Shown piece after piece: positions 3,241-46,112 of a stretch of 64,000 nt of DNA (position 1 is its first letter; every line of letters begins with the position of its first letter). A program made the translations under genes and the position numbers. The notes under the pieces were generated by a model, which worked only from the letters and a program-made list of their open reading frames with translations, searched no databases and was not told where the DNA came from. The stretch comes from Schmidtea polychroa (lineage: Eukaryota), in assembly GCA_044892525.1 (NCBI GenBank), contig CM097885.1, positions 744,001-808,000 on the forward strand. Reading direction: 5' to 3'.

Positions 3241-3431
3241 TTATATCGAGAATATTTAAACAAAGTAAAAGACTTTGAATAAATAGCCTCAATATTTGGA
3301 TTTATTAAATTAAAGATTTCATTTTTAAATTTTTTCAAATTAATTTTTGAAATATTAGGAATTAAAGATTTCCCAACTTCACCAATTCTGTTTTTGAGGA
3401 AATTGTGAAACTTTTTACTATGCTTTTTATC

Positions 3432-4730
3432 AGATCATGCTTTTTATCCAATTTTTAAATTTGTTTAAACCATATTTAAGAATATGGTGCATATCGTATC
3501 CTTTCAAGTTGTGAAATACGATAGGCAAAATTTTATTTATTTTCCTATTTATGTTACATGTGCTACAAGCTGCACCCAAGTATTTCCCCGTAAAATGATC
3601 GTGATCTCTAACAGGATCAACGATAGATTTCATACAAAGATAACAAACAGATGCACTAACAAATTGACGTTGTTCAATTTTCGTTAATTTCATCTTAGGT
3701 TTCCTACCCATTTTATAATAAAAAGGAAGAACCTTATTTAATGCTATATCCTCTATAGCACTTAAAAAACTCTCGACGCAATCTAAACCTATGAACTGTT
3801 GATAAGATTAAGATCCGTCAAAGTTATTTACAAGAAAAAGACCAGCAGATAGTGGCATGTGTCGTTTGAAATGAACATTATTGGAAGGTAAAATAGCCTC
3901 AAAATCGGCATAAACTACAAAGGGAGGAGTTACCAGTCAGTAAACTGCAATAATTTATTTTGAGGGAAAGTGTAAAGAGTTGTTCCTAATTGATTACGTT
4001 TACATAATATTTCATGTTTTTCCAGTGCGTGTTTATACCTAAACCCATTCAAACACCGATGGCACCATAATGATTGTATGCGTGTAGGACAACTAGTGGT
4101 GATACCACAATTCAGTAACCTATTTAAATTACTTATAGCAACGTAATGGAAATTGTTTCCTTTATTTAATAGTAGTAAATTAATTACAGTTCCATTTAAA
4201 ACTTTGGAACGATGTATAATATCTAAATGTGGATGTTTTAATACATAATTATCAGTTAATTGTTTGCTATTATCATATGAAAAAACATTAATTATTAAAC
4301 CCGAATTTTTAGATTCAAATTTCCTAATGTCTTTTAATTTCATAGGTAATTCTATCGGGTCGTATACTAAGTCAGATAAATTATAACTCGATGTCCTATT
4401 TCTAGCATAACTACTAACTTCATCATATTTTAAAATAGCTAAAATGCTATATAAAAAACATGAATCATCAGTGTTTTTTATATTAATTAAACGATATTTA
4501 TTTTGTAGATAAGTAGGTGTTTCAATGAAACTCCTACCACTTAATCTACTTAACATACTTATTTTTGTTATGGTGAAATGTATTTCAGTAATATTTTTTA
4601 TATTCCAACTGCTTCCTAACTCAGTAATATTAGTAATTTTCTCATTTAATTCTTTAATGCCTTCATCAAAAATTGATGCAGTTAAAGGCTTTGCATAATT
4701 TGAGATATTTCTAACCTTTATTTACCCGTC
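3432..4730 (-). pseudogene. Older Polinton pPolB gene, part downstream of the nested insertion (N-terminal/endonuclease VII-like region)
   Basis: LINIKNTDDSCFLYSILA, HYVAISNLNRLL, CHRC, PPFVVYADFE, RDHDHFTGKYLGAACSTCN and FHNLKGYDMH are homologous to the young pPolB; stops and deletions present. Confidence 0.85.
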
Positions 4731-4976
4731 AGTAGTGAGGAATCTATGCACCCCAGCACCCCCACCCTCAAAAAAAACAGCGCTATTGACCCATATTTTC
4801 CACATTTATATGCTTTTTTACCCCATATTCTTCACTTTTTTTAACTTTTAAACTTTGTCCCCTATTGCCATTAACCCTTAATTTCTTCCCTTAATAGTAA
4901 AAAAGTTCGGAATAGATGTATTTATAGATTAGTAATTCCGAGAAAAGGTAACGGGGTGCATAGATTCCTCACTACT
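4731..4976. repeat. Terminal 246-bp unit bounded by a perfect 24-bp inverted repeat of the element terminus
   Basis: AGTAGTGAGGAATCTATGCACCCC at 4731-4754 and its exact reverse complement at 4953-4976. Confidence 0.95.
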
Positions 4977-5109
4977 TGGTCTTAAGGATTTAATGTTATA
5001 AGGATTTAATGTTATAAGAATATCAGATTACCTAATTCATAATGATCTAGGTCGCCTGATCACCTTAAGGTTTTGAAAGTTTTAAAAATAAAAAATTTTA
5101 TGAAATAGT

Positions 5110-5476
5110 AAAACTGCTCTGAGAGGACAGTGGTTTTTTTTTTTTTTTTTCACTGTCCTCTCAACAGTTTTTTTTTGATCCGGATCATTTTTTTTTATTC
5201 AACCTCTTTCGTTTATCAAATCTCTTCCAATATACAAGCTGGCCAGACTCATACATCAGAATCAATTCGATAATAGCAGCACACCTTATTATTCGCTTCT
5301 CGCTCGAATACGATTTCATCGGCGTTTTAAGTGTGCTGCTCGAAAGTACAAATGAATTCGAAAGCGAATCCGAAAGAGGTCCGAAAACAACTGAGAAATA
5401 AATGTGCACATTACCGGAATCGATCCAGGGGTGTTCGAAAGACAGGTGGCGATAATTACCGGTTCGCCACCATCAC
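5110..5476 (-). ncRNA. Putative Pol III tRNA-Asp-headed structured RNA (left TIR copy)
   Basis: A-box TGGCGAACCGG, tRNA-Asp-like GGTAATTATCGCCACCTGTC and B-box GGATCGATTCC, then nested stems and a 13-bp hairpin with an oligo-A loop; expression not shown. Confidence 0.45.
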
Positions 5477-5654
5477 CCGTTTCAATATTTTTTTTTTCAT
5501 ATTTATGTTTAAAAAATAATTAATTAATAAAAAAATAAAATAAAATAAAATAAATAAAATAAAATATACAAGTACTTTATAAATATAAGATACCCACACT
5601 ATTTTCAATATTATTTTCAAATTTTTAATATTATTTTATGTTGAAAAAAAACTA

Positions 5655-5726
5655 ACCTCAGATGTGATTTGAACCACTATCCATTTGAACCACTGTGCCA
5701 GTCTATTCCCACTGCGCCATCAAGGT
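5655..5726 (-). ncRNA. tRNA-like Pol III unit (left TIR copy)
   Basis: ACCTTGA-TGGCGCAGTGG (A-box) ... GGTTCAAATC (B-box) ... GAGGT, then an oligo-T terminator; 72 nt; no proper anticodon arm. Confidence 0.6.
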
Positions 5727-5973
5727 TTGAATTTTTGTCATTTTTTAGACTATAAATAATCGATTCAAGTTCTTTAACTCTTTCCTGTAATTGTTTCATT
5801 TTCTTCAATCTTATATCAGCAACATCTACAGCCTTCATATAAAAATGTCGATACTTTTCATTATCTACCATCAACTCTTTGATGTATTCTAATGGTTCTT
5901 CTTCTCTTCTTTTCATTCTCTTATGTTTAACTTCATTCAATTCATTTCTCATTCTTTCTTTTAACTCATCCAT
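5677..5973 (-). CDS. Small coiled-coil hypothetical Polinton protein
   Basis: 98-aa E/K/R-rich helical ORF in an AAAATG context; its 3' end runs into the TIR and overlaps the tRNA-like unit. Confidence 0.55.
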   Translation of the reverse strand: MDELKERMRNELNEVKHKRMKRREEEPLEYIKELMVDNEKYRHFYMKAVDVADIRLKKMKQLQERVKELESIIYSLKNDKNSNLDGAVGIDWHSGSNG

Positions 5974-6142
5974 TTTTATAAATATTTTTTTATTGGATAT
6001 ATTAATTTTTGGTAGCTTAAGTTAAAACGTTTTTGATCTTAAATTTCCAAGAGTTGCCGTTGACCAATCTCATTAAAAATTTGTACAAGTACTAAATCGA
6101 GTATGCTGATCAATATTTCGTTAAAAAAAATTTGAAAAAAAA

Positions 6143-6215
6143 TGACCGAAATGGGATTTGAACCCATTGGTATTGGCAATGCAGTCGAGTGCTATTACCA
6201 CTAAGCTATTAGAGC
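6143..6215 (-). ncRNA. tRNA-Cys(GCA)-derived Pol III unit / pseudo-tRNA
   Basis: TAGCTTAGTGG A-box; AGCACTCGACTGCA resembles the tRNA-Cys D-arm/anticodon region; perfect T-arm ATGGG-TTCAAAT-CCCAT; T8 terminator; acceptor and anticodon stems do not pair fully. Confidence 0.65.
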
Positions 6216-6384
6216 TATACTCAATATAAAATAAGTTGTTAATGTGTGACTATTTATTGATGAAATTAATAATTAATTATTCATTTTCTCGACAACTACC
6301 AGTCAGATCCATCTGAAAATTTAAATATATACTAAAATCAGTACGCTGAATCAGACTCCGTTGAAAAAAAATATCGATAAAAAT

Positions 6385-6457
6385 TGACCAAAATCGAAAA
6401 TTGAACCCGGTACTCCCGGTGATAAAATTGAAGCCTATTCCACTCCGCTATAATGGC
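6385..6457 (-). ncRNA. Degenerate tRNA-like Pol III unit, tandem paralogue of 6143-6215
   Basis: TAGCGGAGTGG A-box, GGGTTCAA partial B-box, T-run; its downstream flank is homologous to that of the 6143-6215 unit. Confidence 0.5.
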
Positions 6458-6513
6458 TTACATAATATATTTAATTAATCCTATTTTGTGTGTGTAAATT
6501 TTAATATATAAAA

Positions 6514-7806
6514 ATGAATAACATAAATCTTAAAATTCAAGAAAAAAATAAATTAAATCTTGATTATAATAAAGAATTTACTCATGAAATTAAAAAAAAT
6601 GATATTTTAAAAATCTCTCCAACTTCAGGATCTATTGCAAACTTAAATCGTAGGGGTGATATAGTTTTTCAATCTTTTCAAACATCAAACCCAATAGATA
6701 TTTGTAATGCCAAATTATATTACAAAGTAGAATTAGAAATTGAAGCAAACAAAGATATAACCCTAGAAAATAATTTCTTTCCAAATTTATTCTCCAACAT
6801 GAGATTAAAACTAAGATCATCAGAAATTGAAACTGTTTTGCATCCGGGAGTATATTCTACAATGTTAAATTTTATTTTGACTGGTTGTGATTATAAAAAC
6901 GAATATGGTGAATTAACAGGTTGGATTCCTGATGTTAATAAAGGAGATTTAGATAAAGATGGTTTAGATGTAAACCATGGTTACCATAAAAGAGCTGAAC
7001 TTTATAAATCTAAAAAATTTGAAGGTTATTTTGAATTAAAACACTTGTTTGGATTCCTTCAAAACTATAATCGCATACTTCATAATGTTTTTATAGAATT
7101 CATCTGTAATAGAGTAGAAGGTGATAAAAGATTGTTCTATGGAGCTGTAGATACAAAAGCTAAATTAAAATTATCAACACTTGAATTACATATACCTGAA
7201 TGGACATTAAACCCACATTCTGAGATTAAACTCCTTGAAAGATTAAATTCCAACAAGTCTATAAATGTAAATTATTTAAATAGAATCTGTAGTGAATTTA
7301 GTATGACAGAGGGTTCAACATATTCTATAAAGGTAGCAAATTTAGCATACCGACCAAGATATATCTTGATTGGATTCAAGGAAGTAGATTCATCTTTCCA
7401 AAAAAATAACAACTTGTTTATTCAAAAGATTGGAGTTGATAATTTAAAAACAATACAAATTCAATTAAATAGTTCTTATTATCCAATAAATAGAATGGAA
7501 TTTAATATTGAAAATAATGAAAACATATTCCCATATCTAAATTATATTGAAACATGTTATGATTTCAAAGTTGAACCGCAATTAAGTTTAGAAGATTTCA
7601 AAAATTTATATTCTATATTTTGTATAAATGTTTCAGACCAAGATGATTGCCTAGCCATAAATAATGTTGATGTTACACTTCATGTAACAAAGGATTCTAA
7701 TTTTAAAGCTAAAGTATATACATTAATATTAGAAGAAAAGAAAATAGAAATGAAATTATATGGTGGAAAGATTTCAATAATCGAAAATGTTAGGGGAGAT
7801 TCTTGA
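6514..7806 (+). CDS. Major capsid protein (double jelly-roll, hexon-like)
   Basis: 430 aa; Polinton MCP-type motifs ITLENNFFPNLFSNMRL, EIETVLHPGVYSTM, LFGFLQNYNRIL, RPRYILIGF, YSIFCINVS; element context. Confidence 0.85.
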   Translation: MNNINLKIQEKNKLNLDYNKEFTHEIKKNDILKISPTSGSIANLNRRGDIVFQSFQTSNPIDICNAKLYYKVELEIEANKDITLENNFFPNLFSNMRLKLRSSEIETVLHPGVYSTMLNFILTGCDYKNEYGELTGWIPDVNKGDLDKDGLDVNHGYHKRAELYKSKKFEGYFELKHLFGFLQNYNRILHNVFIEFICNRVEGDKRLFYGAVDTKAKLKLSTLELHIPEWTLNPHSEIKLLERLNSNKSINVNYLNRICSEFSMTEGSTYSIKVANLAYRPRYILIGFKEVDSSFQKNNNLFIQKIGVDNLKTIQIQLNSSYYPINRMEFNIENNENIFPYLNYIETCYDFKVEPQLSLEDFKNLYSIFCINVSDQDDCLAINNVDVTLHVTKDSNFKAKVYTLILEEKKIEMKLYGGKISIIENVRGDS

Positions 7807-7835
7807 TATAATCCCTGATATTTTAACATTTTAAA

Positions 7836-9218
7836 ATGTCTCTAAATAAATATTGGAGATGTGAAAGTTGTAATTGTCAAGTTACAAGACATCATAAAGC
7901 AAGTCATTTAAAAACTAAAAAACATACAGGAGGCGATCTACAATCTTCAAAAACAACATCTTCAATATTACAACCTTTTAGTACAGAAAAATATCCAGGT
8001 GAAAGACATTTATTTAAACACAACTACACCGGACCAGGAACAAGATTAGATATTAGATTAGATGAAAATAATAATCCCAAACAAGGAGAAGAACCAATAA
8101 ATAGAATTGATCAAGCAGCTTTAAAACATGACATTGCATACAATTCAACAAATCTTAGAGATAGACATGTTGCAGATGTGAATTTAATACATGATTTAAA
8201 TAGTATCCAAAATCCATCAACCCAAGAAAAGATTCAAAGAGCTCTAGTTAAATTAGCAATGAAAGGTAAGATTTTCATAGGCTTAGGACACAGTCCGATC
8301 ACCATGGGTGCAAGACTTCCTAGAATAGCAAAAGATGTTGCTTATAAAAAGATTATCGAACAAGCAGACATTGAAAGATCCCTTGAGAATATATCCAAGA
8401 CTAGTTTACAAACCCCAACAGAATCAGAAATAAAATATGCAAAGGAATTACACCATGAATTTAGAAAAAATAAAAAATATTTAAAAGTTCAAGTACATGA
8501 AAAAGATCAAACATGGTCTGCAGATTTAGTCTTTATGCCCAAATCATCAGACCCTGAAAAATATAAAATAATTTTAACTGTAATAGATTTATATACAAGA
8601 TTTGCTTTTGCAAGGTGTTTAGAAAATAAAACAGGATATTCTATTACAGAAGCATTTGAAAATATATTTGAAGAAAATCAAAGAATCCCAAAATATTTAT
8701 GGTGTGATAAAGGAACAGAATTTTATAACAAAGTTTTTACAAAGTTTTTAAATGAAAATGATATTAAATTATATTCAACAGAAAACGAAGGAAAAGCAGT
8801 CGTAGTTGAAAGATTAAATAGAACATTAAAAAATAAAATGTGGAAATATTTTACTGCTATTGGAAAACAAAAATGGAACAATGAATTGTTACAAAAGATT
8901 GTAAATGAATATAATAATGATGTACATAGTTCTATAAAATCAACACCTTTAAATGCTTCCTTGAATCCTTTGGAACTCATAAATCCTGTTGAAAATGATG
9001 TTATTGAAAAACCAAAGTTTAAAATTGGTGACCGAGTAAGAATATTTAAATATAAAAATAAATTTGAAAAAGGATTCACAGCAAAATGGACAAATGAAAT
9101 TTTTATTATAAATAAAATAAATTATACAACTCCAATAACATATAGCATCATTGATTTAAATAATGAAAAAATATTAGGTAGATTTTATAATAATGAGTTA
9201 CAGAAAACAGATTTCTAA
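7836..9218 (+). CDS. Zinc finger - parvovirus-type PLA2 - retroviral-like (rve) integrase fusion
   Basis: CESC...H...H zinc finger; HNYTGPGT ... PINRIDQAALKHDIAY (PLA2 Ca loop and HD dyad); integrase DDE in WSADL, CDKGTEF, VVERLNRTLK; PKFKIGDRVRI. Confidence 0.92.
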   Translation: MSLNKYWRCESCNCQVTRHHKASHLKTKKHTGGDLQSSKTTSSILQPFSTEKYPGERHLFKHNYTGPGTRLDIRLDENNNPKQGEEPINRIDQAALKHDIAYNSTNLRDRHVADVNLIHDLNSIQNPSTQEKIQRALVKLAMKGKIFIGLGHSPITMGARLPRIAKDVAYKKIIEQADIERSLENISKTSLQTPTESEIKYAKELHHEFRKNKKYLKVQVHEKDQTWSADLVFMPKSSDPEKYKIILTVIDLYTRFAFARCLENKTGYSITEAFENIFEENQRIPKYLWCDKGTEFYNKVFTKFLNENDIKLYSTENEGKAVVVERLNRTLKNKMWKYFTAIGKQKWNNELLQKIVNEYNNDVHSSIKSTPLNASLNPLELINPVENDVIEKPKFKIGDRVRIFKYKNKFEKGFTAKWTNEIFIINKINYTTPITYSIIDLNNEKILGRFYNNELQKTDF

Positions 9219-10006
9219 AACAAACTTTTCCATATTTCAGCTTCTTTTCTATCCAAATAAATATAATTATATTTTTCTTTCCAATGATTATCAACAAACA
9301 TATCAAACATATTCTTATCAGGTTCAACATTTGAAAATAAATCATTATAAATCATATTCTTATCACGGCGATCTAATTTAAAAAATATAAAACAATTGGA
9401 ATTATTTCTTATAGAGTTTTTATCTAAAGCATAATAAGTTTGAGATATATAAATAACATTACAATTATTATGTCTTCCTCTTGTAAAGTAACTCTTTTGA
9501 ATCTCTTGATTTTTCATGTTGACAACATCATCAAATATAACTAGATTCTTTTTATCTTTAGGAAGTAAATCACAATGTAAAACATCTTCAGGTTTATTAG
9601 AGAATAAAACTTGAATTGCCTCCTGCCCTTCTTCACAAATATAATCATTTTTATTACTAATATCTGATTCTAAAATCTTTTCCTTATACCAATCAACCAT
9701 ATCACAAGGTTGAAAAACTTCTTCAGGACACCTATGTTGATTTTTAAAAATATCAATTATTGCTTTTTTAGTTAATTTATTTTCAAATCCACATTTCAAA
9801 AGTTGTAATTCTGGTTGATTTATGGTTGTAGAATAAAAGATTAAATTATTATAATCTAAAAAATCATCTTCAAGTAACATTCTCAAAACAAGTACATTCT
9901 TTCCACATCCAGAAGAACCAACAATTAATAATCTAAAATTATCAGGAAATACTTTATTATTGAATTTACTCTTATGTCTATTTAAAATTGGTTTCCAAGT
10001 ATCCAT
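9215..10006 (-). CDS. A32/FtsK-like DNA packaging ATPase
   Basis: Walker A GSSGCGKN (atypical N), Walker B LVIFDD, FTRGRHNNCNVIYISQ, IRNN. Confidence 0.92.
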   Translation of the reverse strand: MDTWKPILNRHKSKFNNKVFPDNFRLLIVGSSGCGKNVLVLRMLLEDDFLDYNNLIFYSTTINQPELQLLKCGFENKLTKKAIIDIFKNQHRCPEEVFQPCDMVDWYKEKILESDISNKNDYICEEGQEAIQVLFSNKPEDVLHCDLLPKDKKNLVIFDDVVNMKNQEIQKSYFTRGRHNNCNVIYISQTYYALDKNSIRNNSNCFIFFKLDRRDKNMIYNDLFSNVEPDKNMFDMFVDNHWKEKYNYIYLDRKEAEIWKSLF

Positions 10007-10022
10007 TTTTATTTATTATAAA

Positions 10023-10601
10023 ATGACAACTGAAGAATCTTTGCAAGAATTAATATATTCAAATAAAAATAAATCAGTAGTAATTGATGGTAAAAAATAT
10101 TTTATTGGAAAACATGTAAAAGAACAAGTTAGAGCGAAGCTCCACGAAGCTAAAGAAGGTGGCATTCTTCCATTAGCTGCTTTAATACCTGCAATCATTG
10201 CTGGTTTATCAGGTGCTGCTGGAATAGCTGGAGGAATTGCAACTACAGTTCAAAAAGCTAAAGAATCTCAAAAGACAGACCTAGAAAAAGAAAAACTACA
10301 AACTGAAATCGATTCAATGAAGAAGGTAGGGCAAGCTAAAGGGGGAGTGTCCGTTGGAAAGGGTCTCTATCTTAATCCATATGAGGGGAGTCGGCAAAAG
10401 TCTCAGGGCAAAGGTCTCTATCTTGATCCTTATAAAGGTAGAGGTTTAAATGATTTTTTAAAAAATCAAATTTCTACATCTGAATCTTTATCTTCAAAAG
10501 ATAAAGAAGATTTAAAAAAAATATGTAAATCTTTAAAGAATGGATGCCTTTGTAAAACTAAAAATGGTAAAGGATTATACTTGAAGCCCTTCGAACTATG
10601 A
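10023..10601 (+). CDS. pX/cupiennin-like virion core or membrane-active protein
   Basis: GGILPLAALIPAIIAGLSGAAGIAGGIA amphipathic segment and three GKGLYL repeats; likely start is the AAAATG at 10023. Confidence 0.7.
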   Translation: MTTEESLQELIYSNKNKSVVIDGKKYFIGKHVKEQVRAKLHEAKEGGILPLAALIPAIIAGLSGAAGIAGGIATTVQKAKESQKTDLEKEKLQTEIDSMKKVGQAKGGVSVGKGLYLNPYEGSRQKSQGKGLYLDPYKGRGLNDFLKNQISTSESLSSKDKEDLKKICKSLKNGCLCKTKNGKGLYLKPFEL

Positions 10602-10623
10602 TACCATTTTTGATACCATTAAA

Positions 10624-11517
10624 ATGGTATATGAAGAAAGATTAGCACTTTTAAAAAAATTACAATCAGAACAAGATAAATATAATAAAAAAGATACAAC
10701 TCAACATGCTGAATCTATAATATTAAATGAGGTAATAACACAACAACAGGGGCCAACAATTAAAGCTATAAAAGAGTTGGAAGATTTCAATGAGCAAGCA
10801 AAATTTAAAGAGTTAGAAGATAAAAAACAAAAAATAAAAGAACTAGAGTGGCAGGAAAAAGAAAAAGAATCCACTGAAAATCATCCTGAAAGTCATTCTG
10901 AAAGAAATCAAAGAAAACGCAGAAGAATTTCTAATGTGGAAGAAGAAGAAATGTTTTTTAAAACAAAACCTCTTAAAGTTGATCCTAAAATTAGAGATGA
11001 TTTACCTCCTTCAATTAGACCCACATTTAATACTAATACTGAAGGATATCAAATAATAACAATTTATAAACAAAACTTTACTTTATATTCAAATTCAGAA
11101 AATAAATCACGTATTCATTCACAAAATGTTTATAATAATGAATATTTAGACTTTGAATTTACAGATGATTTTTATAGATTACTTTGTGGATATTCTTCAG
11201 GTGATGTTGAAGAAATTAAAAAATATTTAAATTTAATAAGATTAATAAGAGCTAGTTCTAAAGCAAAATATATTCAAGATTTAAAGAATTATTTAAATAA
11301 AAATGAAAAGGGTTATGTTGTTACAGAGGGAGAGGGATTAATTAGTGAAGGTGGTAAACCAAATCCCATCAATCTTTTTATTGAATTAAGAAAACTATTA
11401 GCTGCAAGGAAAGCAGGACATAATAATTTAGATTCTGATATTTTAAAGATTTCTAAAGATTTGTTAAAACAAGGAATAATTTCAAAAGATAAATTTAATA
11501 AGTATACGAAGTTATAA
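10624..11517 (+). CDS. Conserved Polinton hypothetical protein (GEG ... LLAARKAGHNN C-terminal motif)
   Basis: 297-aa ORF with an AAAATG start; C-terminal motif of a type seen in Polinton core proteins; function unknown. Confidence 0.65.
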   Translation: MVYEERLALLKKLQSEQDKYNKKDTTQHAESIILNEVITQQQGPTIKAIKELEDFNEQAKFKELEDKKQKIKELEWQEKEKESTENHPESHSERNQRKRRRISNVEEEEMFFKTKPLKVDPKIRDDLPPSIRPTFNTNTEGYQIITIYKQNFTLYSNSENKSRIHSQNVYNNEYLDFEFTDDFYRLLCGYSSGDVEEIKKYLNLIRLIRASSKAKYIQDLKNYLNKNEKGYVVTEGEGLISEGGKPNPINLFIELRKLLAARKAGHNNLDSDILKISKDLLKQGIISKDKFNKYTKL

Positions 11518-11539
11518 ATACGAAGTTTTAAAATACAAA

Positions 11540-12004
11540 ATGACTCCTTCAATATTAGATTTTTTAAAAACATTTGGAATAAATGCAAAAACAAATTTTG
11601 ATTTAAAAGATTATGCAAATTATTTAAATTTAAAAATTAAAATATTAATGAATGATGAATTATCAAGTCTGGAGAGTCCCCTGAATATAATAATCAATTA
11701 TCAAAATTCAAATGAAAAAGGATCTCATTGGGTTTGTATATATAAGAAATCTATCTACTTTGATTCTTTTGGGATTAAACCTACTAAAGAAGTTGAAGAT
11801 TATCTCTTGAGGGGTTCTCCGATTGATTCCCCAAATGGTTATACTTTTAACTCTTTACAAGTTCAACCTTTGAATACTAAAATATGTGGTATTTTAAGTT
11901 TATATGTTTTGTATAGATTGAATAAGGGAGAGGGAAAGGGGCATACGCAGGATTTTGAATCTATAATTCAAGAAATTTATAATGATCTAGAATCTCTACT
12001 ATAA
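11540..12004 (+). CDS. Adenain-like maturation cysteine protease
   Basis: GSHWVC (His), YFDSFG (Asp), QVQPLNTKICG (Gln/Cys). Confidence 0.92.
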   Translation: MTPSILDFLKTFGINAKTNFDLKDYANYLNLKIKILMNDELSSLESPLNIIINYQNSNEKGSHWVCIYKKSIYFDSFGIKPTKEVEDYLLRGSPIDSPNGYTFNSLQVQPLNTKICGILSLYVLYRLNKGEGKGHTQDFESIIQEIYNDLESLL

Positions 12005-12073
12005 GGATTTTTACTATAAGGATTTTTACTATAAAGATTTTTACTATAAGGATTTTTACTATATGAATTTACT
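11998..12073. repeat. 15-bp tandem repeat (ATAAGGATTTTTACT) x~5
   Basis: Directly visible between the protease and penton genes. Confidence 0.9.
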
Positions 12074-12121
12074 ACTAAAGAAATGGAGCTTCACAACCCT
12101 CCGGAAGATAATTTAAAAAAA

Positions 12122-12847
12122 ATGGTAAACATAATGTAAGATAAATATTCAAGAACTTTATCTATAAATTCAAAAGAATCAGAGTTTACTATAAACTTTC
12201 AAGATTCAATTAAATTAGATCAAAATTTAAATTATGAATTGGGGCTATTATGGTTTTGTGCTTATAATACTATTTTTAATATAACTAAAGATAATAATAA
12301 ATTTACTATTCAAACTCGTGATGGGCATAAACCAGAAATTATAACAATAGAACCTGGGGCATATGAGATAAAAGATTTAAATGATATACTTTCTAAAAAA
12401 ACAAATGAAGGTATTAAAATTAAAATGGATATACCAACTTCAAAATGTGTAATGACTTTGAAGAATTTAAAAATTAGTTTTTTAGATAATTGTTTCTTTC
12501 ACACAGTTTTAGGATTTAAACCTATGGATATAACAATAAAAGAAGATAAAGTAATAACATCAGAAAATATTATAAAAATAATAAATACAAACCCAATAAA
12601 TATTCATTGTGATTGTATAACAGGTTCTTATAATAATGGTAAACAAACAAATGTTTTATATTCCTTTCCCTCAAACACAGTTCCTATGGGATATAAAATA
12701 GTTGAAAGAATGAATCCTCCAAATTATTTACCTTTATGTAGAAAATATATAATGGATATTAATTTTAAAATTCTTAATCAAGAAGGAGAATTGATTGATT
12801 TTAATGGAGAAGAGATTTCAATGTATTTACATTTGAAACAGGTTTGA
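12122..12847 (+). pseudogene. Minor capsid protein (penton) with an in-frame TAA at codon 6
   Basis: ATG at 12122 is in frame: MVNIM*DKYSRTLSINSKESEFTINFQDSIKLDQNLNYELGL...IHCDCITGSY...YLPL...NQEGELIDFNGE; stop at 12137-12139. Confidence 0.8.
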
Positions 12848-12871
12848 AGATTCATTTTAAATTATTAATAA

Positions 12872-13882
12872 ATGAGTTCTTATATTCCTTGTAATAGAGG
12901 TGGTGGAACAATAAAAACAGGGTTTAATACAGAAGAAATATTAACTTTAACAGAAAATAAATATATTAATGAAAGAGGTGATTCAATGAAGGGTGATTTA
13001 ATTTTAAATGGACACAAGATAAAAGAATTATCTTTTCCAACTGATGAAGCTGATGCAGTTAATAAGAAATATGTAGATGGTGTTAAAAAATATACTGATT
13101 TAACAACAACAAGAATTGAAAGTTCATTAACAACAAAAATTGATTCAATGGTATCAAAGCTTAATAATATCGAACAACGATTTAATGATAAATTTGACAA
13201 GTTACAAAGTCTGTTAACTGAACAAGTTGTAAAGTTAAATACTGCTATATTAAATTCTAAAGATAAACAAATTATGAATACTAAATTTAATACAATATAT
13301 AATATAATAAATGAGATGATTACATCATTTAATAAAAGAATTTCAAATTTAGAGTCTCATGGAACACACATTAACACCACACATAGTATTAGAAAAAGAG
13401 CTGCTGAATTAGAACAGAATAAAACATTATTACCCCATACATATAAACATTTTATAGAACCAAGTTTAATAACAACAAACAGTAAAGAATGGGGTGTTTT
13501 TATGGTTTTAAAAATTATTGATCCTTATTTCTTTTTGTTTGATGATGATAATGAAAGAATGAAATGGTTTGTGAAATGTGATTATAATAGTAAGCTTGAA
13601 AAGGGTGATGTTATAATGACTAGTTATGATTTACCACACGGAGATTGGTATGTTAATACTCATTCACATGGACTACATAAAGTTAAAAGTAAGAATATTC
13701 ATTTTTCTAGTTCACTTGTACAATATATAGATTTAATATTTTATGTAAAAAAGGTTGATGTTGATGAAGTTCGTAAAGCATTGAGAGAATTGTATAAAGA
13801 TATCCTCTCAACAAGAGTTTCTTTTGATATCCGAGCATTGGTGCCAGATGGTGCTCAGAAGAATAAAGTCTTATTTTTTTAA
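12872..13882 (+). CDS. Fibre/adhesin-like virion protein
   Basis: GDSMKGDLILNGHKIKEL..P....DAVNKKYVD tail-fibre/YadA-stalk-like motif, followed by a coiled coil and a globular C-terminus. Confidence 0.6.
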   Translation: MSSYIPCNRGGGTIKTGFNTEEILTLTENKYINERGDSMKGDLILNGHKIKELSFPTDEADAVNKKYVDGVKKYTDLTTTRIESSLTTKIDSMVSKLNNIEQRFNDKFDKLQSLLTEQVVKLNTAILNSKDKQIMNTKFNTIYNIINEMITSFNKRISNLESHGTHINTTHSIRKRAAELEQNKTLLPHTYKHFIEPSLITTNSKEWGVFMVLKIIDPYFFLFDDDNERMKWFVKCDYNSKLEKGDVIMTSYDLPHGDWYVNTHSHGLHKVKSKNIHFSSSLVQYIDLIFYVKKVDVDEVRKALRELYKDILSTRVSFDIRALVPDGAQKNKVLFF

Positions 13883-13890
13883 TTATTAAA

Positions 13891-14502
13891 ATGGAAGAAG
13901 TAAGAGAAGAAAAAATTTACCCCGAATTGAGATCATCAGGATATTATTCCGAAGGTCACAAAGGTTCCAAGGCCTCGGCTCCCACAGAACTTGAAATTAT
14001 GAGAGTAAAAGAATTTAAATCAGAAACCTTACATTTACAAGATTTATTAAAGCATTATAAAAAAATTAAAAATAGATGGAAGAAAGGGAATACAGTTTTA
14101 AAAGTTATAGGTTATTCTTTAGGATTTGCATCTGCAATATTAACAGTTATTTTACCCATAACTTTACCAGTTGTTACTCTTGCACCTGTAATACTTGGAA
14201 GTATTTCTGTGGCTGATGGTTTCTTAACTGAAATAGTTTCATTATCTTATACTTCTAAAAAGAAAAATTTATATAGAGAAGTTTGTTTATCAATAGAATT
14301 AGGAATCTCTAAATTATTTTTATTTCAATTAAAAGCTTTGGAAGATGGAATCCTGACAGACGAAGAAATAATGAAATCAAATCAAATAATACAAGATATA
14401 AAGAATGAGGTTATAAGATTAAAAAGGGAGGACATGGTGGCTAATGTTATAAGTAATAAAAAAACATCTCGAGAAAAATGGTTAAAGAATTCTTACTTAT
14501 AA
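13891..14502 (+). CDS. Membrane protein (possibly the adintovirus GasderminX-like family)
   Basis: Central hydrophobic hairpin and KALEDGILTDEE motif; family assignment from recall, not from a search. Confidence 0.55.
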   Translation: MEEVREEKIYPELRSSGYYSEGHKGSKASAPTELEIMRVKEFKSETLHLQDLLKHYKKIKNRWKKGNTVLKVIGYSLGFASAILTVILPITLPVVTLAPVILGSISVADGFLTEIVSLSYTSKKKNLYREVCLSIELGISKLFLFQLKALEDGILTDEEIMKSNQIIQDIKNEVIRLKREDMVANVISNKKTSREKWLKNSYL

Positions 14503-15298
14503 AATGGGTGTATTTTTAAAAAAGTAGATCAGGTTGCTATAGTTGCTTAAATTAATTGTCGACATTTTATTATTAAAAAATTAAATATCGTTGGTTTCAG
14601 TTATGGTTGAAAGTCAACCTATGAATCATTAATTTATGATCTTTAAATTCTTTATCACTTAGACCTTTTATATATTTAAGTTCTAAACATATAGGATTAA
14701 AAACTTGAGAATATAAAGGTTTCCCGATTTCTCTCTCGGGATAAATAATTTCAACATTATAAATATCAAGATCAGTAATCTTTGTATCATATAACTTATT
14801 CAACTTTTCTAGATTTTTTATTATAGGGACGAAGAAATAATGAAATCAAATCAAATAATACAAGATATAAAGAATGAGGTTATAAGATTAAAAAGGGAGG
14901 ACATGGTGGCTAATGTTATAAGTAATAAAAAAACATCTCGAGAAAAATGGTTAAAGAATTCTTACTTATAAAATGGGTGTATTTTTAAAAAAGTAGATCA
15001 GGTTGCTATAGTTGCTTAAATTAATTGTCGACATTTTATTATTAAAAAATTAAATATCGTTGGTTTCAGTTATGGTTGAAAGTCAACCTATGAATCATTA
15101 ATTTATGATCTTTAAATTCTTTATCACTTAGACCTTTTATATATTTAAGTTCTAAACATATAGGATTAAAAACTTGAGAATATAAAGGTTTCCCGATTTC
15201 TCTCTCGGGATAAATAATTTCAACATTATAAATATCAAGATCAGTAATCTTTGTATCATATAACTTATTCAACTTTTCTAGATTTTTTATTATAGGGA
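14359..15298. repeat. 469-bp tandem duplication spanning the convergent gene ends
   Basis: 14359-14829 repeated at 14828-15298 with a GA microhomology; explains the spurious ORF 14597..14803. Confidence 0.93.
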
Positions 15299-18200
15299 TT
15301 AAATTATTTCCAATAGGTAGAGTTGTCTTTAAATCACTTAGTATGAATCTTTTATCATCATAATTTGATAATGATACTTTTTGAGATTCTATCAAGTGAA
15401 TATCATGGTTTTCACTTTTAAGTTGATGTATTTCATCAATTTTATCTTTATGATTTGGATTCAATGTATCTATATAATCTTGATGAGAAAGATTCTTTGC
15501 CACCACTCTCTGTATTCCTTTACATCTGTTATCCTTTACAGGTTTTTCTTCTTTAGGAAATATAGGATATCTATGTGTAATGGTTTCTTCTGTTTCTGGA
15601 GTTTTAAATATAAATGATCTAGTTATAAATTCAGGGTTTCTAAATGTTTCGTATGAATATTGTTTAGCACGAATAAATATTCCATTTTCTATAGGAGTAA
15701 AAGGTTTTTCATCTTTAAACGAAAATAGTTCTCCAGATGAATTTATTAAATTTGAAAGTATAGGATTTTCTTTCATATCTTTTTGTAAATCATGAGTTCT
15801 TATTGTTAAAAACATTGAATCTGTATCCATTGCATGCATTGATATATTTGCTCCGTATATAGGTTGTAAGATGTTATAATATGTTTCATACATTTGTAAT
15901 TTTGAAAGTTCTAAAATTGTAAACCCTATAAATATTGGTTTGTTATATGTTTTCTCATAATTTTTTAATTCTACTGCAGTAAGATTTTCAGAAAATACTT
16001 GTGCGTTTTTAAATGTAGGCTTTCCTTGCATGCGATTATAACGCTTAATATCTTTGGTAGTATTTGTTAGGAGTTCAATATGAGTATATTTATCAACATT
16101 CTCCATTGTTTTCCCAAAGACTGAATTGTTTAAAATTTTATAATTATTATCTTTAAAAAGGTTACCTTCTCTTTTTGCAATGTTTCGACACCTAATGTTC
16201 TCCTCGATAAAAGCTTTCATGAATGGAGCTTGTTTAAATCTTATGACACTATGAACTTTTTTTAATATCATTCCTCGTGAGAGATAAAATTGGAGGAGTC
16301 TATAGTGACAAAGATAAAACCTTCGATCTGTTTGATCACAAAGAAGTTTCATTGTTGGAGGTTTATCTTGTGAGATTTGCCATTCAGAAAGTTCGTTGAT
16401 ATCAATCTTTCTTCTTATGGGAGCTAAAGGAAAATATCTTGTTCCTGATTTTATATCATCTGGATAGTCGAGGTCACATTCTATAAAGTAACCTATTGGA
16501 GAATCTTTCGATGTTGAAAGTATTTCTTTCATAAGGTTATCTGTTGGGTTCTCTATTTCAGTGAAATCACTCATTGGTAAATATTGAGTCATAATTCCTG
16601 AATATAAAGCTGTTGCATCTATATAAAGTATAAATATAGGATTTTTCATTGTTTCTAATAATTCTTTTAATTCCTCATTGTTAATTTTCATATATGGATC
16701 ATCAGGGTGTTTAGATAGTCTTCGGCTAGTAGTTATTGCATTTCTAGCTTTTATTTCTCTATTCCCCATTACTGAAGAGACTCCTCCTCTAATGTTTGTT
16801 TTAATTTGGTTAAACATATCGAGGTTAGTTAAAAGATCTATAATTTTATCAGCATCTTCTATATTTGAAGTCCAAATGGTATATAACATAGTATCCCAAG
16901 CTAAAGAGGGTGCAGTTATATAATTATAGGGTTTAAGAACAAAAGATTTTGTAAATTCTTCAAAGCAATCTGCTAGAATATAAACATCCAAGGATAAATA
17001 CATACTTGTATATTCTCCTAAAGTTTTACACTTGAATAATTCCCACATTTTATTTGCTCGAGAATATTCTTGATTTGTAATATGATTTTTTTGAAGTTGT
17101 GAATAGAAATCTTCTAGGCTAGGAAGACTTGTTTCATTATATCTTTCAAACGAGTCAACATAGTCATAAGGATATATTCCTTTTGCTAAACATGTAGGAT
17201 ATTCTTCTAGAGGAATATTATTTTTTTCCAAGAATTCTCCAGTGATTTTAAAATTTTCTGCTTTCATTGTTTTTGCTACTGCATCTAAAGACATTTGGAG
17301 AAAGTTTAACGAGTCTATAAATTTTAATTTTCCATATTCAATTGATTTATATTTTTCCTTTGTTAAGCCGATAACTTTGAAAGAGTTTTTAGCATTTGCT
17401 GCGAGGTGTTTAATAAATAGATGTATGTCATATCCAAAAAGATTATGAAATATAACAGGTATAAATTTAGGAGTATGGCAATTAAGATTGCAATTTTTAT
17501 GAGCTGCTCCTTGATAATTATTTTCCTTTTTTAAATGATCATGATCTATAACTTTTTCATCAGGAAGAATATTCTGTTTACACATCCAACAGTTGGAAGT
17601 ATTTTCATATTCTTGTTGTTGTTGATTAGAAATATTTTGAGGATACTTTGTTTTTAATATTTTAAATATTTCATGTTCTAGATCATTTATATTTTTAGTA
17701 AAATGATTCAAGACTTCTTCAGGGGTACCTCCTAGAATTGAATATTCTCTAGATTCTATGAGTTCAGGATAATTACTTTTAAATAATAATTTATAAGCAG
17801 ATGATAATTGATTAGTTTTTTTAACACTATTAGGTTTATTTCTTTTTCTTAGAAAGGCTTTCATCCTCTCTGGTTTCATCTTCTCTCCTGAGGAGTTCCA
17901 TGAATCCATGAGTTTATTTTTTTCTATTATTTTTAAATATTGATAAACCAAATCTTGTTTATGGTTTATAGATTCAAAGTCACCATAAAGAACTCCAACT
18001 GTTTGTAGTAAATTTGAAAAGTTTTTAAAATACATCTTGGGATTATTAGGCATTTTAATTAAAGCTGGATCATCTTTTTCACAAAATCTTGTATGTTTAA
18101 TCATAGAGTTTTTAGTTGTTGAATAATGAAGACATCTTTTACATGTTCCTCCTCCACTAGTTGGATTCTCTGGAGATGTAAAAGCTTGAAAGTTTTTTAT

Positions 18201-19346
18201 TAAAACATAATGTTGATTATTTTCTTGTTCCAAGATTAAAAGATATATCTCGTTGTCCTGTGCTCCGTTATCCTTGGTTCCACTATCTGAAATATAAATT
18301 GGAATAATTTCTTTCCCTATAACATGTTCATAAATATTAAGTTTAAGATTATTTAAACTTTCAAATTCTGGAATGTCTTCTAGTTTCATTGAGTGTTTGA
18401 ATCCTTTGGGAAATATTAATTCATTTTCATATTGTTTGTATTTTGAAACTCTTTGGGGATTTGTTGCTTGAGGATGTAAATGTGCAAGTATTGACCAGAT
18501 GAAACATTTGTTATCATTATTCTGTACATTTATAACATTTTTATATTTAAAGGGTGTAGGAATATAAGATTTAGGATTGGGTGGTAATCCTCTCCAATAA
18601 TCAATCACTAAAGTTTGGAAAGAGTTGAATACTAAGTTTGAATCTCCTAATTCATTTTCTACTTCCTCTTGTTTTGCTTCTGCTGCTTTAATTATTTCTT
18701 TGATGGTTTTATCAAATCCTTTAATTGAAAATAAATATTTAAAAGGTATTCCAATTTCAACATCTAAGGGTGTTGTCTTTTCTTCTGCTCCTCGCCAGTA
18801 TTTTGCTTTGATTATAATTTTATATTTTATAACATTATACCTTGTCGGTTTATAATTTTTTAAAGCTTCAGTGAAAGAATTTTTAATATTTTTTTTATTT
18901 TTATTTATATATTCTCCAGGAGTTGCAGGCCCATTAATTTTTAATTGAAATTCATCTATATGATTAAAATTATCCCAGTTATATTTTTCTCTTTCAACAT
19001 GATCAGGTTCTCCTTCTGAATGACATTCCTCATCGTCAGAATTTTGTTTTTTATTTTTACATTCTTTTATATGTTCTAAATAATAGAAATTTAGTTTTGT
19101 TGAAAAGTTACAATGAGGACATGTAAATATTTCTCTATTTTTCCCGATACAATTTTCAAAATGTTTATTATATCCAGAATGTAGAAATCTTCCTTGACAT
19201 TTAGGACAAAGTTTTGAATTTGTATCATTAAGATTATTTTCTTTTAATAAATGAGCTTTCGATTTTAAGTGAGAAATTAATCCAGTTTTATTTTTAAAAA
19301 CTTCATTTTTAGAAAAAAATTTTTTATTGGATACCCTGTTTTCATT
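15066..19346 (-). CDS. Protein-primed family B DNA polymerase with N-terminal zinc fingers and an endonuclease VII-like region
   Basis: YGDFE, FHNLFGYD, KGIYPYDY, YIDATALY, KILNNSVFGKT, MDTDS, KGI; my translation shows the frame stays open from 19346 (CPKC, CPHC fingers) with no in-frame ATG upstream of 18608. Confidence 0.93.
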   Translation of the reverse strand, partial: NENRVSNKKFFSKNEVFKNKTGLISHLKSKAHLLKENNLNDTNSKLCPKCQGRFLHSGYNKHFENCIGKNREIFTCPHCNFSTKLNFYYLEHIKECKNKKQNSDDEECHSEGEPDHVEREKYNWDNFNHIDEFQLKINGPATPGEYINKNKKNIKNSFTEALKNYKPTRYNVIKYKIIIKAKYWRGAEEKTTPLDVEIGIPFKYLFSIKGFDKTIKEIIKAAEAKQEEVENELGDSNLVFNSFQTLVIDYWRGLPPNPKSYIPTPFKYKNVINVQNNDNKCFIWSILAHLHPQATNPQRVSKYKQYENELIFPKGFKHSMKLEDIPEFESLNNLKLNIYEHVIGKEIIPIYISDSGTKDNGAQDNEIYLLILEQENNQHYVLIKNFQAFTSPENPTSGGGTCKRCLHYSTTKNSMIKHTRFCEKDDPALIKMPNNPKMYFKNFSNLLQTVGVLYGDFESINHKQDLVYQYLKIIEKNKLMDSWNSSGEKMKPERMKAFLRKRNKPNSVKKTNQLSSAYKLLFKSNYPELIESREYSILGGTPEEVLNHFTKNINDLEHEIFKILKTKYPQNISNQQQQEYENTSNCWMCKQNILPDEKVIDHDHLKKENNYQGAAHKNCNLNCHTPKFIPVIFHNLFGYDIHLFIKHLAANAKNSFKVIGLTKEKYKSIEYGKLKFIDSLNFLQMSLDAVAKTMKAENFKITGEFLEKNNIPLEEYPTCLAKGIYPYDYVDSFERYNETSLPSLEDFYSQLQKNHITNQEYSRANKMWELFKCKTLGEYTSMYLSLDVYILADCFEEFTKSFVLKPYNYITAPSLAWDTMLYTIWTSNIEDADKIIDLLTNLDMFNQIKTNIRGGVSSVMGNREIKARNAITTSRRLSKHPDDPYMKINNEELKELLETMKNPIFILYIDATALYSGIMTQYLPMSDFTEIENPTDNLMKEILSTSKDSPIGYFIECDLDYPDDIKSGTRYFPLAPIRRKIDINELSEWQISQDKPPTMKLLCDQTDRRFYLCHYRLLQFYLSRGMILKKVHSVIRFKQAPFMKAFIEENIRCRNIAKREGNLFKDNNYKILNNSVFGKTMENVDKYTHIELLTNTTKDIKRYNRMQGKPTFKNAQVFSENLTAVELKNYEKTYNKPIFIGFTILELSKLQMYETYYNILQPIYGANISMHAMDTDSMFLTIRTHDLQKDMKENPILSNLINSSGELFSFKDEKPFTPIENGIFIRAKQYSYETFRNPEFITRSFIFKTPETEETITHRYPIFPKEEKPVKDNRCKGIQRVVAKNLSHQDYIDTLNPNHKDKIDEIHQLKSENHDIHLIESQKVSLSNYDDKRFILSDLKTTLPIGNNLIPIIKNLEKLNKLYDTKITDLDIYNVEIIYPEREIGKPLYSQVFNPICLELKYIKGLSDKEFKDHKLMIHRLTFNHN

Positions 19347-19412
19347 TTATTTTTTAAGATTTATATTATTCATTTTTTATAATAAAAATTTAAAAAATGA
19401 CAAAAAATCCAA

Positions 19413-19484
19413 ACCTTGATGGCGCAGTGGGAATAAACTGACACAGTGGTTCAAAATGCTAGCGGTTCAAATCACATCTGAGGT
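19413..19484 (+). ncRNA. tRNA-like Pol III unit, diverged tandem copy just inside the right TIR
   Basis: TGGCGCAGTGG A-box, GGTTCAAATC B-box, T9 terminator; part of a ~215-bp tandem duplication with the 19627 unit. Confidence 0.6.
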
Positions 19485-19626
19485 TAGTTTTTTTTTCAAC
19501 ATAAAATAATATTGAAAATTGTGTGGGTATCTTATATTTATAAAGTACTTGTATATTTTATTTTATTTATTTTATTTTATTTTATTTTTTTATAAATTAA
19601 AAATTAAAAAAATGACAAAAATTCAA

Positions 19627-19698
19627 ACCTTGATGGCGCAGTGGGAATAGACTGGCACAGTGGTTCAAATGGATAGTGGTTCAAATCACATCTGAGGT
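19627..19698 (+). ncRNA. tRNA-like Pol III unit (right TIR copy)
   Basis: Identical to 5655-5726; A-box, B-box, oligo-T. Confidence 0.6.
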
Positions 19699-19876
19699 TA
19701 GTTTTTTTTCAACATAAAATAATATTAAAAATTTGAAAATAATATTGAAAATAGTGTGGGTATCTTATATTTATAAAGTACTTGTATATTTTATTTTATT
19801 TATTTTATTTTATTTTATTTTTTTATTAATTAATGATTTTTTAAACATAAATATGAAAAAAAAAATATTGAAACGG

Positions 19877-20246
19877 GTGATGGTGGCGAACCGGTAATTA
19901 TCGCCACCTGTCTTTCGAACACCCCCGGAACGATTCCGGTAATGTGCACATTTATTTCTCAGTTGTTTTCGGACCTCTTTCGGATTCGCTTTCGAATTCA
20001 TTTGTACTTTCGAGCAGCACACTTAAAACGCCGATGAAATCGTATTCGAGCGAGAAGCGAATAATAAGGTGTGCTGCTATTATCGAATTGATTCTGATGT
20101 ATGAGTCTGGCCAGCTTGTATATTGGAAGAGATTTGATAAACGAAAGAGGTTGAATAAAAAAAAAATGATCCGGATCAAAAAAAAACTGTTGAGAGGACA
20201 GTGAAAAAAAAAAAAAAAAAAACCACTGTCCTCTCAGAGCAGTTTT
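19877..20246 (+). ncRNA. Putative Pol III tRNA-Asp-headed structured RNA (right TIR copy)
   Basis: A-box 19884-19894; B-box variant GGAACGATTCC 19927-19937; stems 19973-19982/20142-20151, 20013-20022/20069-20078, 20043-20048/20058-20063, 20191-20203/20224-20236. Confidence 0.45.
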
Positions 20247-20625
20247 ACTATTTCATAAAATTTTTTATTTTTAAAACTTTCAAAACCTTAAGGTGATCAG
20301 GCGACCTAGATCATTATGAATTAGGTAATCTGATATTCTTATAATATTAAATCCTTATAACATTAAATCCTTAAGACCAAGTAGTGAGGAATCTATGCAC
20401 CCCGTTACCTTTTCTCGGAATTACTAATCTATAAATACATCTATTCCGAACTTTTTTACTTTTAAGGGAAGAAATTAAGGGTTAATGGCAATAGGGGACA
20501 AAGTTTAAAAGTTAAAAAAAGTGAAGAATATGGGGTAAAAAAGCATATAAATGTGGAAAATATGGGTCAATAGCGCTGTTTTTTTTTAGGGTGGGGGTGC
20601 TGGGGTGCATAGATTCCTCACTACT

Positions 20626-45348: not shown

Positions 45349-46112
45349 TAAAAAAAAAAAAAAAAAAATCAAATTTTATTTTAATCAAAACGCGGGCCCC
45401 AAGGCCAGGAAGGGGAGATCGATTTTCACCCTTAAGAATTCTGCATCTTTTAATCAAATAATCGAAGGATATCAGAACGTGTTCATTTCGGTTATCATGT
45501 CATCAGGAGTAAGGATTTTTGGAGAGGCAGTGATGATCGGATTATCATTGTTGTCGAGGTCGGTATTGGAATTGAAGTTGATGAATTAGCATGGATATTT
45601 GATCTAGATGCTCAGTCGTAAGGGGTTCGGATAGGTCTTGATAGTTTGAGTTGATGGAGTTTATGAGTTCCGATATGGAAGTTGGATGGTCTTCATTAAG
45701 TTGATCATTTTCTTGGTTATTTTGGTGGATAAGTCTGGGTATTTGATTCAGATCTTCAGTAGCAAGGCGTTCGGAGAGGTCTGGATTTTGGTTAGTAGGA
45801 TCATCAGGAGGCTTTTATAGCTAGTCTCTGAGTATTGGAGGTCAGCCATTTGCAGGGAGGGCATGATCTAAATAAATAAGTTTCGGGGCAGGAAGGATCC
45901 CATGCGAAGTTTATAGCGAGAAATAAGTACTTATTATAATATATATTATAAGGAGTTAGTGAAGGTTGAGGTAAGTATATTAGTATTAATAGTTAATAGA
46001 GGTGTTGATTATAGTATCAATAGTATAATAATAATGATTATAGTATTAATAAAAACAACTAAAAAGACCACCAAATAGGCAGAACCCCTACAAGGATTCC
46101 TACATTAACCCA

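Follow-up and report, generated by a model that had tools for sequence, protein, structure and literature searches.

A candidate Pol III non-coding RNA gene beside tDNA-like shells at the ends of a planarian Polinton

The element and its genes

The window, which is the whole stretch of 64,000 nucleotides of Schmidtea polychroa DNA analysed here, holds a 15.9-kb element with long terminal inverted repeats (Table 1). Its gene content is that of a Polinton/Maverick of the adintovirus type: DNA polymerase B and an rve integrase are accompanied by a double-jelly-roll capsid protein and a packaging ATPase. Long terminal inverted repeats, AGT-type ends and a 6-bp target duplication are hallmarks of Polintons, and the element has a 1-kb repeat, ends of this type and a duplication that agrees at 5 of 6 positions here and at 6 of 6 in the sister element L098/L101. 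A PLA2 domain is fused to the integrase, and matches to pX-like and adenain-like protease domains are weak (E = 0.04 and 0.057, respectively); the combination called PLA2X consists of PLA2 plus a pX domain (PMC8502044, in part).

Table 1 Features of the element and of the orphan rDNA piece in the same window
Feature	Position in window	Strand	Remarks
Polinton/adintovirus-type element	4731–20625		AGTAGT termini; 6-bp target duplication with one mismatch
Left terminal inverted repeat	4731–5746		Mirror at 19607–20625; arms of 1,016 and 1,019 bp bound the element, 99% identity over 1,019 bp; holds U1 and U2
Terminal module	4731–4974		Own inverted repeat at its bounds; sister subfamilies carry unrelated 209–307-bp modules instead
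U1	5110–5476	−	A box 5469–5459, B box 5426–5416; tRNA-Asp-like head; long multi-helix body
U1, 3′ features	5110–5476	−	Three oligo-A tracts, 21-bp 3′ hairpin, T4 stop at 5113–5110, internal T4 at +90
U2	5644–5726	−	Short A/B-box unit, T8 terminator; internal 15-bp repeat duplicates B-box core
98-aa charged ORF	5677–5973	−	Reads outward into U2; in several subfamilies only; no Pfam match over cut-off
Block common to host 45S rDNA intergenic spacer	6010–6496	−	93–95% identity; bounded by short AT-rich direct repeat; missing in sister subfamilies
U3	6135–6215	−	Cys/Lys-like degenerate tDNA; perfect A and B boxes, paired T stem, broken anticodon stem, T8
U4	6376–6457	−	Degenerate tDNA; B box with two mismatches; related to U3
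Double-jelly-roll major capsid protein	6514–7806	+	PF21738, E = 4e-26; start 57 bp from U4, pointing away
PLA2-like domain fused to rve integrase	7836–9218	+	Domain match; PF00665 over cut-off
A32-like packaging ATPase	9215–10006	−	PF04665
Protein-primed DNA polymerase B, main ORF	15066–18389	−	PF03175 over cut-off
U2′, tandem paralogue of U2	19413–19495	+	85% identity to U2; just outside right inverted repeat
U2 mirror	19627–19709	+	Inside right inverted repeat
U1 mirror	19877–20246	+	Inside right inverted repeat; one extra B-box mismatch
Orphan rDNA piece	55936–58027		28S 3′ end (57378–58027, minus) plus spacer; ends in 3′ half of a U3 copy, cut by non-LTR retroelement

Copies are very numerous and of recent origin. 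Each of the 40 left-end matches that were scored (at least 40 in the genome) is 97–100% identical, the 20-nt flanks differ in all 29 other copies examined, and the capsid motif occurs 2,212 times in the host genome searched (781 Mb, four large contigs and many small ones), with at least 98 intact capsid ORFs. Within one capsid clade we found at least nine unrelated terminal module sequences (209–307 bp, each with its own inverted repeat), resembling swappable origins. In the copy in the window, the polymerase gene ends 3′ in a tandem duplication of 471 bp that is perfect (14359–15298), and this copy is itself inserted in the polymerase gene of a second Polinton family (3430–4730 and 20626 onward), many copies of which lie as inverted pairs around 4–6 kb apart.

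Seven sites and four types of unit

A scan with A-box and B-box consensus sequences returned six matches in the 15.9-kb element. The remaining 48 kb of the window gave none, and 20 shuffles of the element gave one in all. A seventh unit (19877) fell below the scan cut-off because of an extra B-box mismatch. The preliminary description of this locus had listed seven such units pointing towards the element ends, and its coordinates, strands and orientations are right; all seven sites are present. They represent only four unit types, U1–U4, because the right-end sites at 19627 and 19877 are inverted-repeat mirrors and that at 19413 is a paralogue of U2. The units have the layout of type-2 Pol III genes, with A and B boxes 43–44 nt apart and a T-run downstream. 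Each U1 box departs from consensus at one position, and two mismatches are found in the B boxes of U4 and of the right-hand U1.

None of this amounts to a tRNA cloverleaf: anticodon stems pair at 2–3 of 5 positions and the T stem of U2 at 2 of 5. ARAGORN found no tRNA gene in the units, and only U3 passes the Rfam tRNA model (32.4 bits, cut-off 29). ARAGORN serves as the control here; our stem-count script, with its fixed A-box pattern, failed to match two host tRNA controls. The preliminary description had both acceptor and anticodon stems unpaired, which is borne out for the anticodon stems only, as acceptor stems pair at 6 of 7 positions in the window's U2 copies and at 5 of 7 in U3 and U4. 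Its suggestion of Cys-like and Asp-like parents needs similar revision. Of the four host tRNAs compared (Cys, Asp, Lys and Arg), Cys (43/72, GCA loop) and Lys (41/73) are about equally good fits to U3. U4 is closest to U3 rather than Asp-like (34/72 to Asp, p = 0.07); it is the U1 head that resembles Asp (39/72; p = 0.002, boxes kept constant). The host genes for tRNA-Lys, tRNA-Arg, tRNA-Cys, tRNA-Asp and 7SL lie in long tandem arrays with periods of 424, 278, 281, 398 and 593 bp, respectively, and motif counts give around 1,000 copies for tRNA-Cys and around 1,700 for tRNA-Asp.

In 18 copies of U2 anchored on its middle part, the boxes and the T-run are nearly invariant; acceptor positions vary freely and their pairing is not kept. 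The middle part is likewise conserved in this set, which was anchored on it. Preferential conservation of A and B boxes among copies, proposed earlier as a check, holds for U2, and so does the earlier statement that the short units keep boxes and T-runs; in U4 the B box has decayed, as that statement allowed. U2 resembles U3 beyond the boxes (p = 0.001–0.003) and may be an older relative of it, captured earlier. Judged from the sequence, short units that keep their boxes and lose their RNA shape fit a role as TFIIIC sites, or simple relics, better than a VA-like RNA.

Copy number and spread of the cassette

The exact U1 promoter pattern has 2,820 copies in the genome, compared with 2,212 capsid motifs, and the untranscribed upstream flank is retained in at least 2,202 of these 2,820, the gap range used leaving out one common variant. 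Among the first 100 matches, 56 adjoin the start of a capsid gene, 20 lie at the opposite end of an element that carries one, 11 form outward-facing pairs and 13 are unassigned. The two capsid-linked classes together hold 76 matches where 3 are expected by chance, and overall 87 of the 100 are at element ends, so that U1 is not a SINE; the abundant host SINE with target duplications that the preliminary description had named as a point against itself is, for these units, largely refuted. Conversely, the same stretch has 71 capsid motifs, and 56 of them adjoin U1. A host-resident ancestor of U1 may be among the 13 unassigned matches.

To call the units one built-in array, as was done at the outset, overstates their constancy. 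Among 20 left ends hand-picked for divergence, U1 occurs with one or two copies of U2 in 14 (of these, one has a truncated U1, and in two U1 extends past the end of the sequence analysed). The other 6 have no unit at all; the absence from other family copies raised earlier as an objection applies to these six. Sister element L098/L101, delimited as a whole by its 6/6 target duplication, has no units at either end. Both ends of L100/L102 lack them too, but there the flanks form no target duplication; L103 reached no end. Together, the missing units in 6 of 20 left ends and at both ends of two sisters make the cassette dispensable, accessory cargo. Sisters without any unit have multiplied too.

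At least five unrelated terminal modules stand in front of the cassette, and one type of module is found both with it (L096 and L111) and without it (L098 and L116). By eye, the cassette of L096 is flanked by an AT-rich repeat that is single in L098, which indicates recombination. In copy L110, U1 is interrupted and truncated by a second, independent rDNA-spacer fragment (positions 481–522 of L110; 42 bp, 98% identity).

Near 34 distant capsid relatives on metagenome contigs (99 kb; short, most of them without element ends), a strict scan found no box unit, and a relaxed scan of the same loci gave four poor matches against 0–1 in shuffles. A scan of viral contigs gave 56 pattern matches and no relatives, and searching the host genome with capsid relatives of 72% and 50% identity returned only this clade.

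Two units shared with the host rDNA spacer

U3 and U4 have close counterparts in the host. A repeat in the 45S rDNA intergenic spacer carries U4 and two or three tandem copies of U3, 93–95% identical to the element, and one more box unit lies upstream of these; in the window's own orphan rDNA piece, box units stand 1.3 kb beyond the 28S 3′ end. The spacer-type junction has 741 copies and, on unplaced contigs, recurs with a period of around 13 kb, interleaved with the 18S motif (896 copies). For 40 of 44 listed junctions on unplaced contigs, an 18S motif on the opposite strand lies 2.5–6.5 kb away. The units thus hold a fixed place between the 28S end and the 18S start in tandem units of around 13 kb. 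The Polinton-type U3–U4 junction has 546 copies, and the U3–U4 block occurs in only 2 of the 14 cassette-bearing diverged ends. The simpler direction, and the most likely one, is that a single sublineage took up U3 and U4 from the rDNA spacer of its host.

The spacer array (L104–L107; 55936–58027 in the window) consists of one further unit, U4 and two or three U3 that repeat every 243 bp, and it runs antisense to the rRNA; by motif counts it is present in roughly 741 of 896 rDNA units. The spacer junction motif is missing from a second rDNA array, with a period of around 11.6 kb, which would agree with two rDNA types, and a 2.3-kb piece of the spacer of this second array (L125) has no box unit and nothing resembling U1 or U2. 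A 180-bp piece of the element recurs at 55936–56115, within a high-copy repeat. R2/NeSL-like non-LTR retroelements lie at 55200–55935 and 42700–52200 in the window, and one 5′-truncated copy ends inside the orphan-spacer U3. A search of the literature on flatworm rDNA spacers, outside subscription journals, Repbase Reports and supplements, found no mention of tDNA-like units.

Fold and conservation of U1

Over the span that starts 7 nt ahead of the A box and ends with the T4 at 5110, the 367-nt U1 (about 370 nt, of which some 300 nt lie past the tRNA-Asp-like head) folds at −128 kcal/mol (z = −7.7), and none of 100 shuffles folds as well. In the predicted structure, a hairpin at the 5′ end is followed by a multibranched body, whose helices measure 9, 7, 12 and 10+15 bp, and then by the 21-bp 3′ hairpin with its A-rich loop. 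The sense strand folds better than the antisense strand (−128 versus −104 kcal/mol; antisense z = −4.6) and uses 16 G–U pairs versus 5. No Rfam family matches U1 at E ≤ 10, the VA, 7SL, 7SK, vault and Y RNA models included, and U1 shows no likeness to the host 7SL gene (p = 0.45), the one host gene compared among 7SL, 7SK, vault and Y RNA. A 12-nt antisense match of U1 to the element core was sought and none was found.

Substitutions shared by at least 2 of 13 diverged U1 copies number 17, with 3 at the 164 paired sites and 14 at the 199 sites that are unpaired (p = 0.018). This count is without L110 and L119, in which U1 is partial, and without the window's private change at 5427; the joint fold is also without L117. 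All three paired-site changes retain pairing where the partner is present (p = 0.04), one of them as a series A–U, G–U, G–C. Once indel-adjacent columns are removed, the stem-versus-loop count becomes 3 versus 6 (p = 0.36), and the helices contain only one two-sided change, in one copy. Among young copies, singletons keep pairing at the chance rate (2 of 10, null 2.0; 27 copies, after omission of 2 of 29 that lack the anchor), and a selection test on 30 young copies has no power at a diversity of 0.3–1%, nearly all of it singletons. Because of the p value of 0.36 after column removal and because the copies are related, support for selection on the U1 fold is modest. Across 11 subfamily copies, whose terminal modules are of at least five unrelated kinds, U1 is 96–98% identical; this identity may reflect recent spread rather than selection.

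Sequencing-run contigs

Contigs from four of four runs (four studies, three organism labels; their classification as RNA is the tool's guess) cover the body of U1, and one 294-nt contig, from a run guessed to be RNA, bridges 5160–5413 and so spans the internal T4. Among the runs with a matching stretch, none is recorded as RNA. This cover is a weak hint, because the runs were found by a stretch that includes U1. Diverged U1 relatives exist in run contigs under another organism label, and U1 copies below 90% identity occur in run X6.

The outer repeat (4731–5042) has no cover in the four guessed-RNA runs, and repeats at 5126–5159 and 5486–5572 are skipped. In run X1, summed depth is 3,600–7,300 over U1 and mostly 220–530 over the capsid gene (one bin, 1,117), although contig depth cannot rank genes. 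We count neither the gap in cover nor the X1 depth, because of this property of contig depth, the skipped repeats and run variants that resemble the L099 type with a different terminus. A read-through mRNA from the 98-aa ORF could also cover the cassette, and the T4 at +90 could, by its sequence, stop Pol III early.

Discussion

Our main reading, to which we assign a probability of roughly 0.55 on sequence evidence, is that U1 is a candidate Pol III non-coding RNA gene carried as accessory cargo, beside promoter-only tDNA shells. The element-encoded, non-tRNA Pol III RNA of the preliminary description survives here for U1, with its strand-biased fold, own terminator, position at element ends and non-SINE character; the short units fit that description poorly. 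Elements of this Polinton clade would have, at their ends, a Pol III cassette that can be exchanged and that lies between the terminal module and the first gene. U1 would be a type-2 gene with A and B boxes, probably built on a tRNA-Asp-like head, and its predicted product is an RNA of around 370 nt with long helices and oligo-A loops. TFIIIC and TFIIIB would load onto its boxes, and Pol III would pass the T4 at +90 and terminate at the T4 that follows the 3′ hairpin; from so many templates, abundant double-stranded-like RNA would result. U2–U4 would be promoter-plus-terminator shells of one degenerate tDNA family, most likely extra TFIIIC sites holding the end region open or simple passengers. 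The cassette would move between subfamilies by recombination at AT-rich homologies and be copied to the opposite end by inverted-repeat extension.

VA, EBER and BC1-type RNAs tie up defence or poly(A)-binding proteins; VA RNA blocks PKR and competes for Exportin-5 and Dicer. Adenovirus VA RNA I and II are the family that we take to be Rfam RF00102. VA RNA has an intragenic box A/box B promoter and a U4 terminator, is highly base-paired and has a proposed tRNA origin (PMC7589676, in part). U1 shares with it the A/B-box promoter, the T4 stop, the heavy base pairing and a lineage of protein-primed linear dsDNA viruses (PMC7589676, in part). Unlike VA RNA, which is around 160 nt and has a terminal stem that joins its two ends and a central GGGU–ACCC stem, U1 is more than twice as long, its ends fold separately without a terminal stem, and it matches no Rfam model; its GGGU/ACCC is in the 5′ domain only, and it sits in terminal repeats, is optional and has oligo-A loops. 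As a member of the VA family U1 fails on size, terminal stem and model match. It is best read as VA-type in promoter and build, outside the VA family, with a function suggested by analogy.

Bocavirus BocaSR is a viral Pol III non-coding RNA. So are EBER1 and EBER2 of EBV, the TMERs of MHV68 and the hairpins of BLV and foamy viruses, all of which U1 would resemble in this respect (PMC4378190, in part). That source describes non-tRNA Pol III RNAs for viruses of vertebrates; in TMERs a tRNA-like head is followed by hairpins with a poly-U end, and foamy-virus Pol III units sit in terminal repeats (PMC4378190). Unlike U1, all of these RNAs, BocaSR included, come from vertebrate viruses. In contrast to TMERs, the head of U1 forms its own hairpin with no cloverleaf, which makes release by RNase Z doubtful.

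Rodent BC1 is a single host gene of around 150 nt with a tRNA-derived head, an A-rich segment, a unique 3′ hairpin and its own terminator; in description U1 is similar, with a tRNA-like head, an A-rich part and a 3′ hairpin with terminator, although BC1 is one short gene. For the short units, the comparison is with tDNA and extra-TFIIIC (ETC, COC) chromatin barriers, B-box-centred sites that keep their boxes without needing a tRNA product. U2–U4 likewise keep boxes without a tRNA product, but ETC and COC sites are known from host chromosomes and the present units lie in a mobile element and an rDNA spacer, where binding is putative. Among Polinton relatives, polinton-like viruses and virophages carry Pol III cargo in the form of tRNAs, with 558 matches among 8,300 genomes (PMC12220804, in part) and tRNA flags in a figure legend (PMC8502044, in part). 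Those tRNAs are intact, identified by Rfam or ARAGORN and read as codon support (PMC12220804, in part), whereas the units described here are not tRNAs and would mostly be missed by such scans. A search of the literature on Polintons, Mavericks, adintoviruses and planarians, outside subscription journals, Repbase Reports and supplements, found no mention of non-tRNA Pol III genes in Polintons.

What the U1 RNA would do is a more tentative matter, and the odds are somewhat against even the function that we think likeliest. We favour, by analogy, a decoy for dsRNA or small-RNA defence (Dicer, Argonaute/PIWI loading, Exportin-5) or for poly(A)-binding protein, because VA and EBER RNAs are described as decoys (PMC7589676 and PMC4378190, each in part) and because Polintons are PIWI and H3K9me3 targets in a planarian (PMC8532177, in part).

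The same heterochromatin could be countered at the level of DNA, with clustered A and B boxes binding TFIIIC as a tDNA-type barrier or nucleosome-free seed that shields the capsid and polymerase promoters, RNA being a by-product. U2 keeps only boxes and terminator, as such a barrier would, and the units are multiplied in tandem (one or two U2 per end, plus U3 and U4), adjoin the divergent capsid and polymerase starts at both ends and have relatives with a fixed place in the rDNA spacer. We nevertheless consider a barrier unlikely as the whole account, since it has no need of the 300-nt strand-biased fold of U1, the B box of U4 has decayed and sisters without units have multiplied as well. Quite unlikely, too, is that the cassette is neutral cargo, element ends picking up host repeats such as rDNA spacer and Pol III genes by template switching, with U1 a captured host RNA gene or relic that hitch-hikes without benefit. 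The capture of U3 and U4 is direct evidence that pick-up happens, as is the 42-bp spacer fragment in L110; the cassette is dispensable, and the conservative selection test is non-significant. Neutrality sits poorly, however, with the persistence of U1 and U2 behind at least five unrelated termini and beside 56 of 71 capsid motifs, with boxes spared while neighbouring positions drift, and with a U1 that has neither an Rfam match nor likeness to host 7SL.

Two further accounts fare worse. That the helices of U1 act as single-stranded DNA in strand-displacement replication or packaging draws on the antisense strand folding well too and on element ends made of self-inverted modules, but the fold spans A box to T-run on one strand, is rich in G–U on that strand and is missing in sister elements; we regard this as very improbable. 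Insertion of the units as SINEs is largely refuted. A tRNA-like head, an unrelated body and an A-rich 3′ part give U1 the outline of a SINE, yet the dispersed copies starting at +1 and the target duplications of a tRNA-derived SINE were not found: 87 of 100 copies are at element ends and at least 2,202 of 2,820 keep the upstream flank that is not transcribed, every unit has its own terminator, and single units lack a flanking target duplication.

Returning to U1 as a candidate Pol III RNA gene, a bolder version, speculative and in our judgement somewhat unlikely, is that animal Polintons repeatedly built Pol III ‘virus-associated’ RNAs from captured tRNA-type promoters. U1 would then be an abundant anti-silencing RNA with around 2,800 templates, carried on a terminal cassette traded between subfamilies and helping to explain why cassette-bearing elements are the majority despite PIWI control, and members of the same degenerate tDNA family would make up a Pol III array, antisense and so far undescribed, in the rDNA spacer of the host.

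A gene such as U1 in a high-copy, integrated Polinton of an invertebrate would carry the VA-RNA strategy into the broader lineage related to adenoviruses, and U1 would be a first candidate counter-defence RNA for elements thought to be repressed by piRNAs. Sisters with and without the cassette, even behind the same terminal module, offer a natural comparison within one genome, and the units common to the rDNA spacer and the Polinton ends show one route by which such cassettes may arise.
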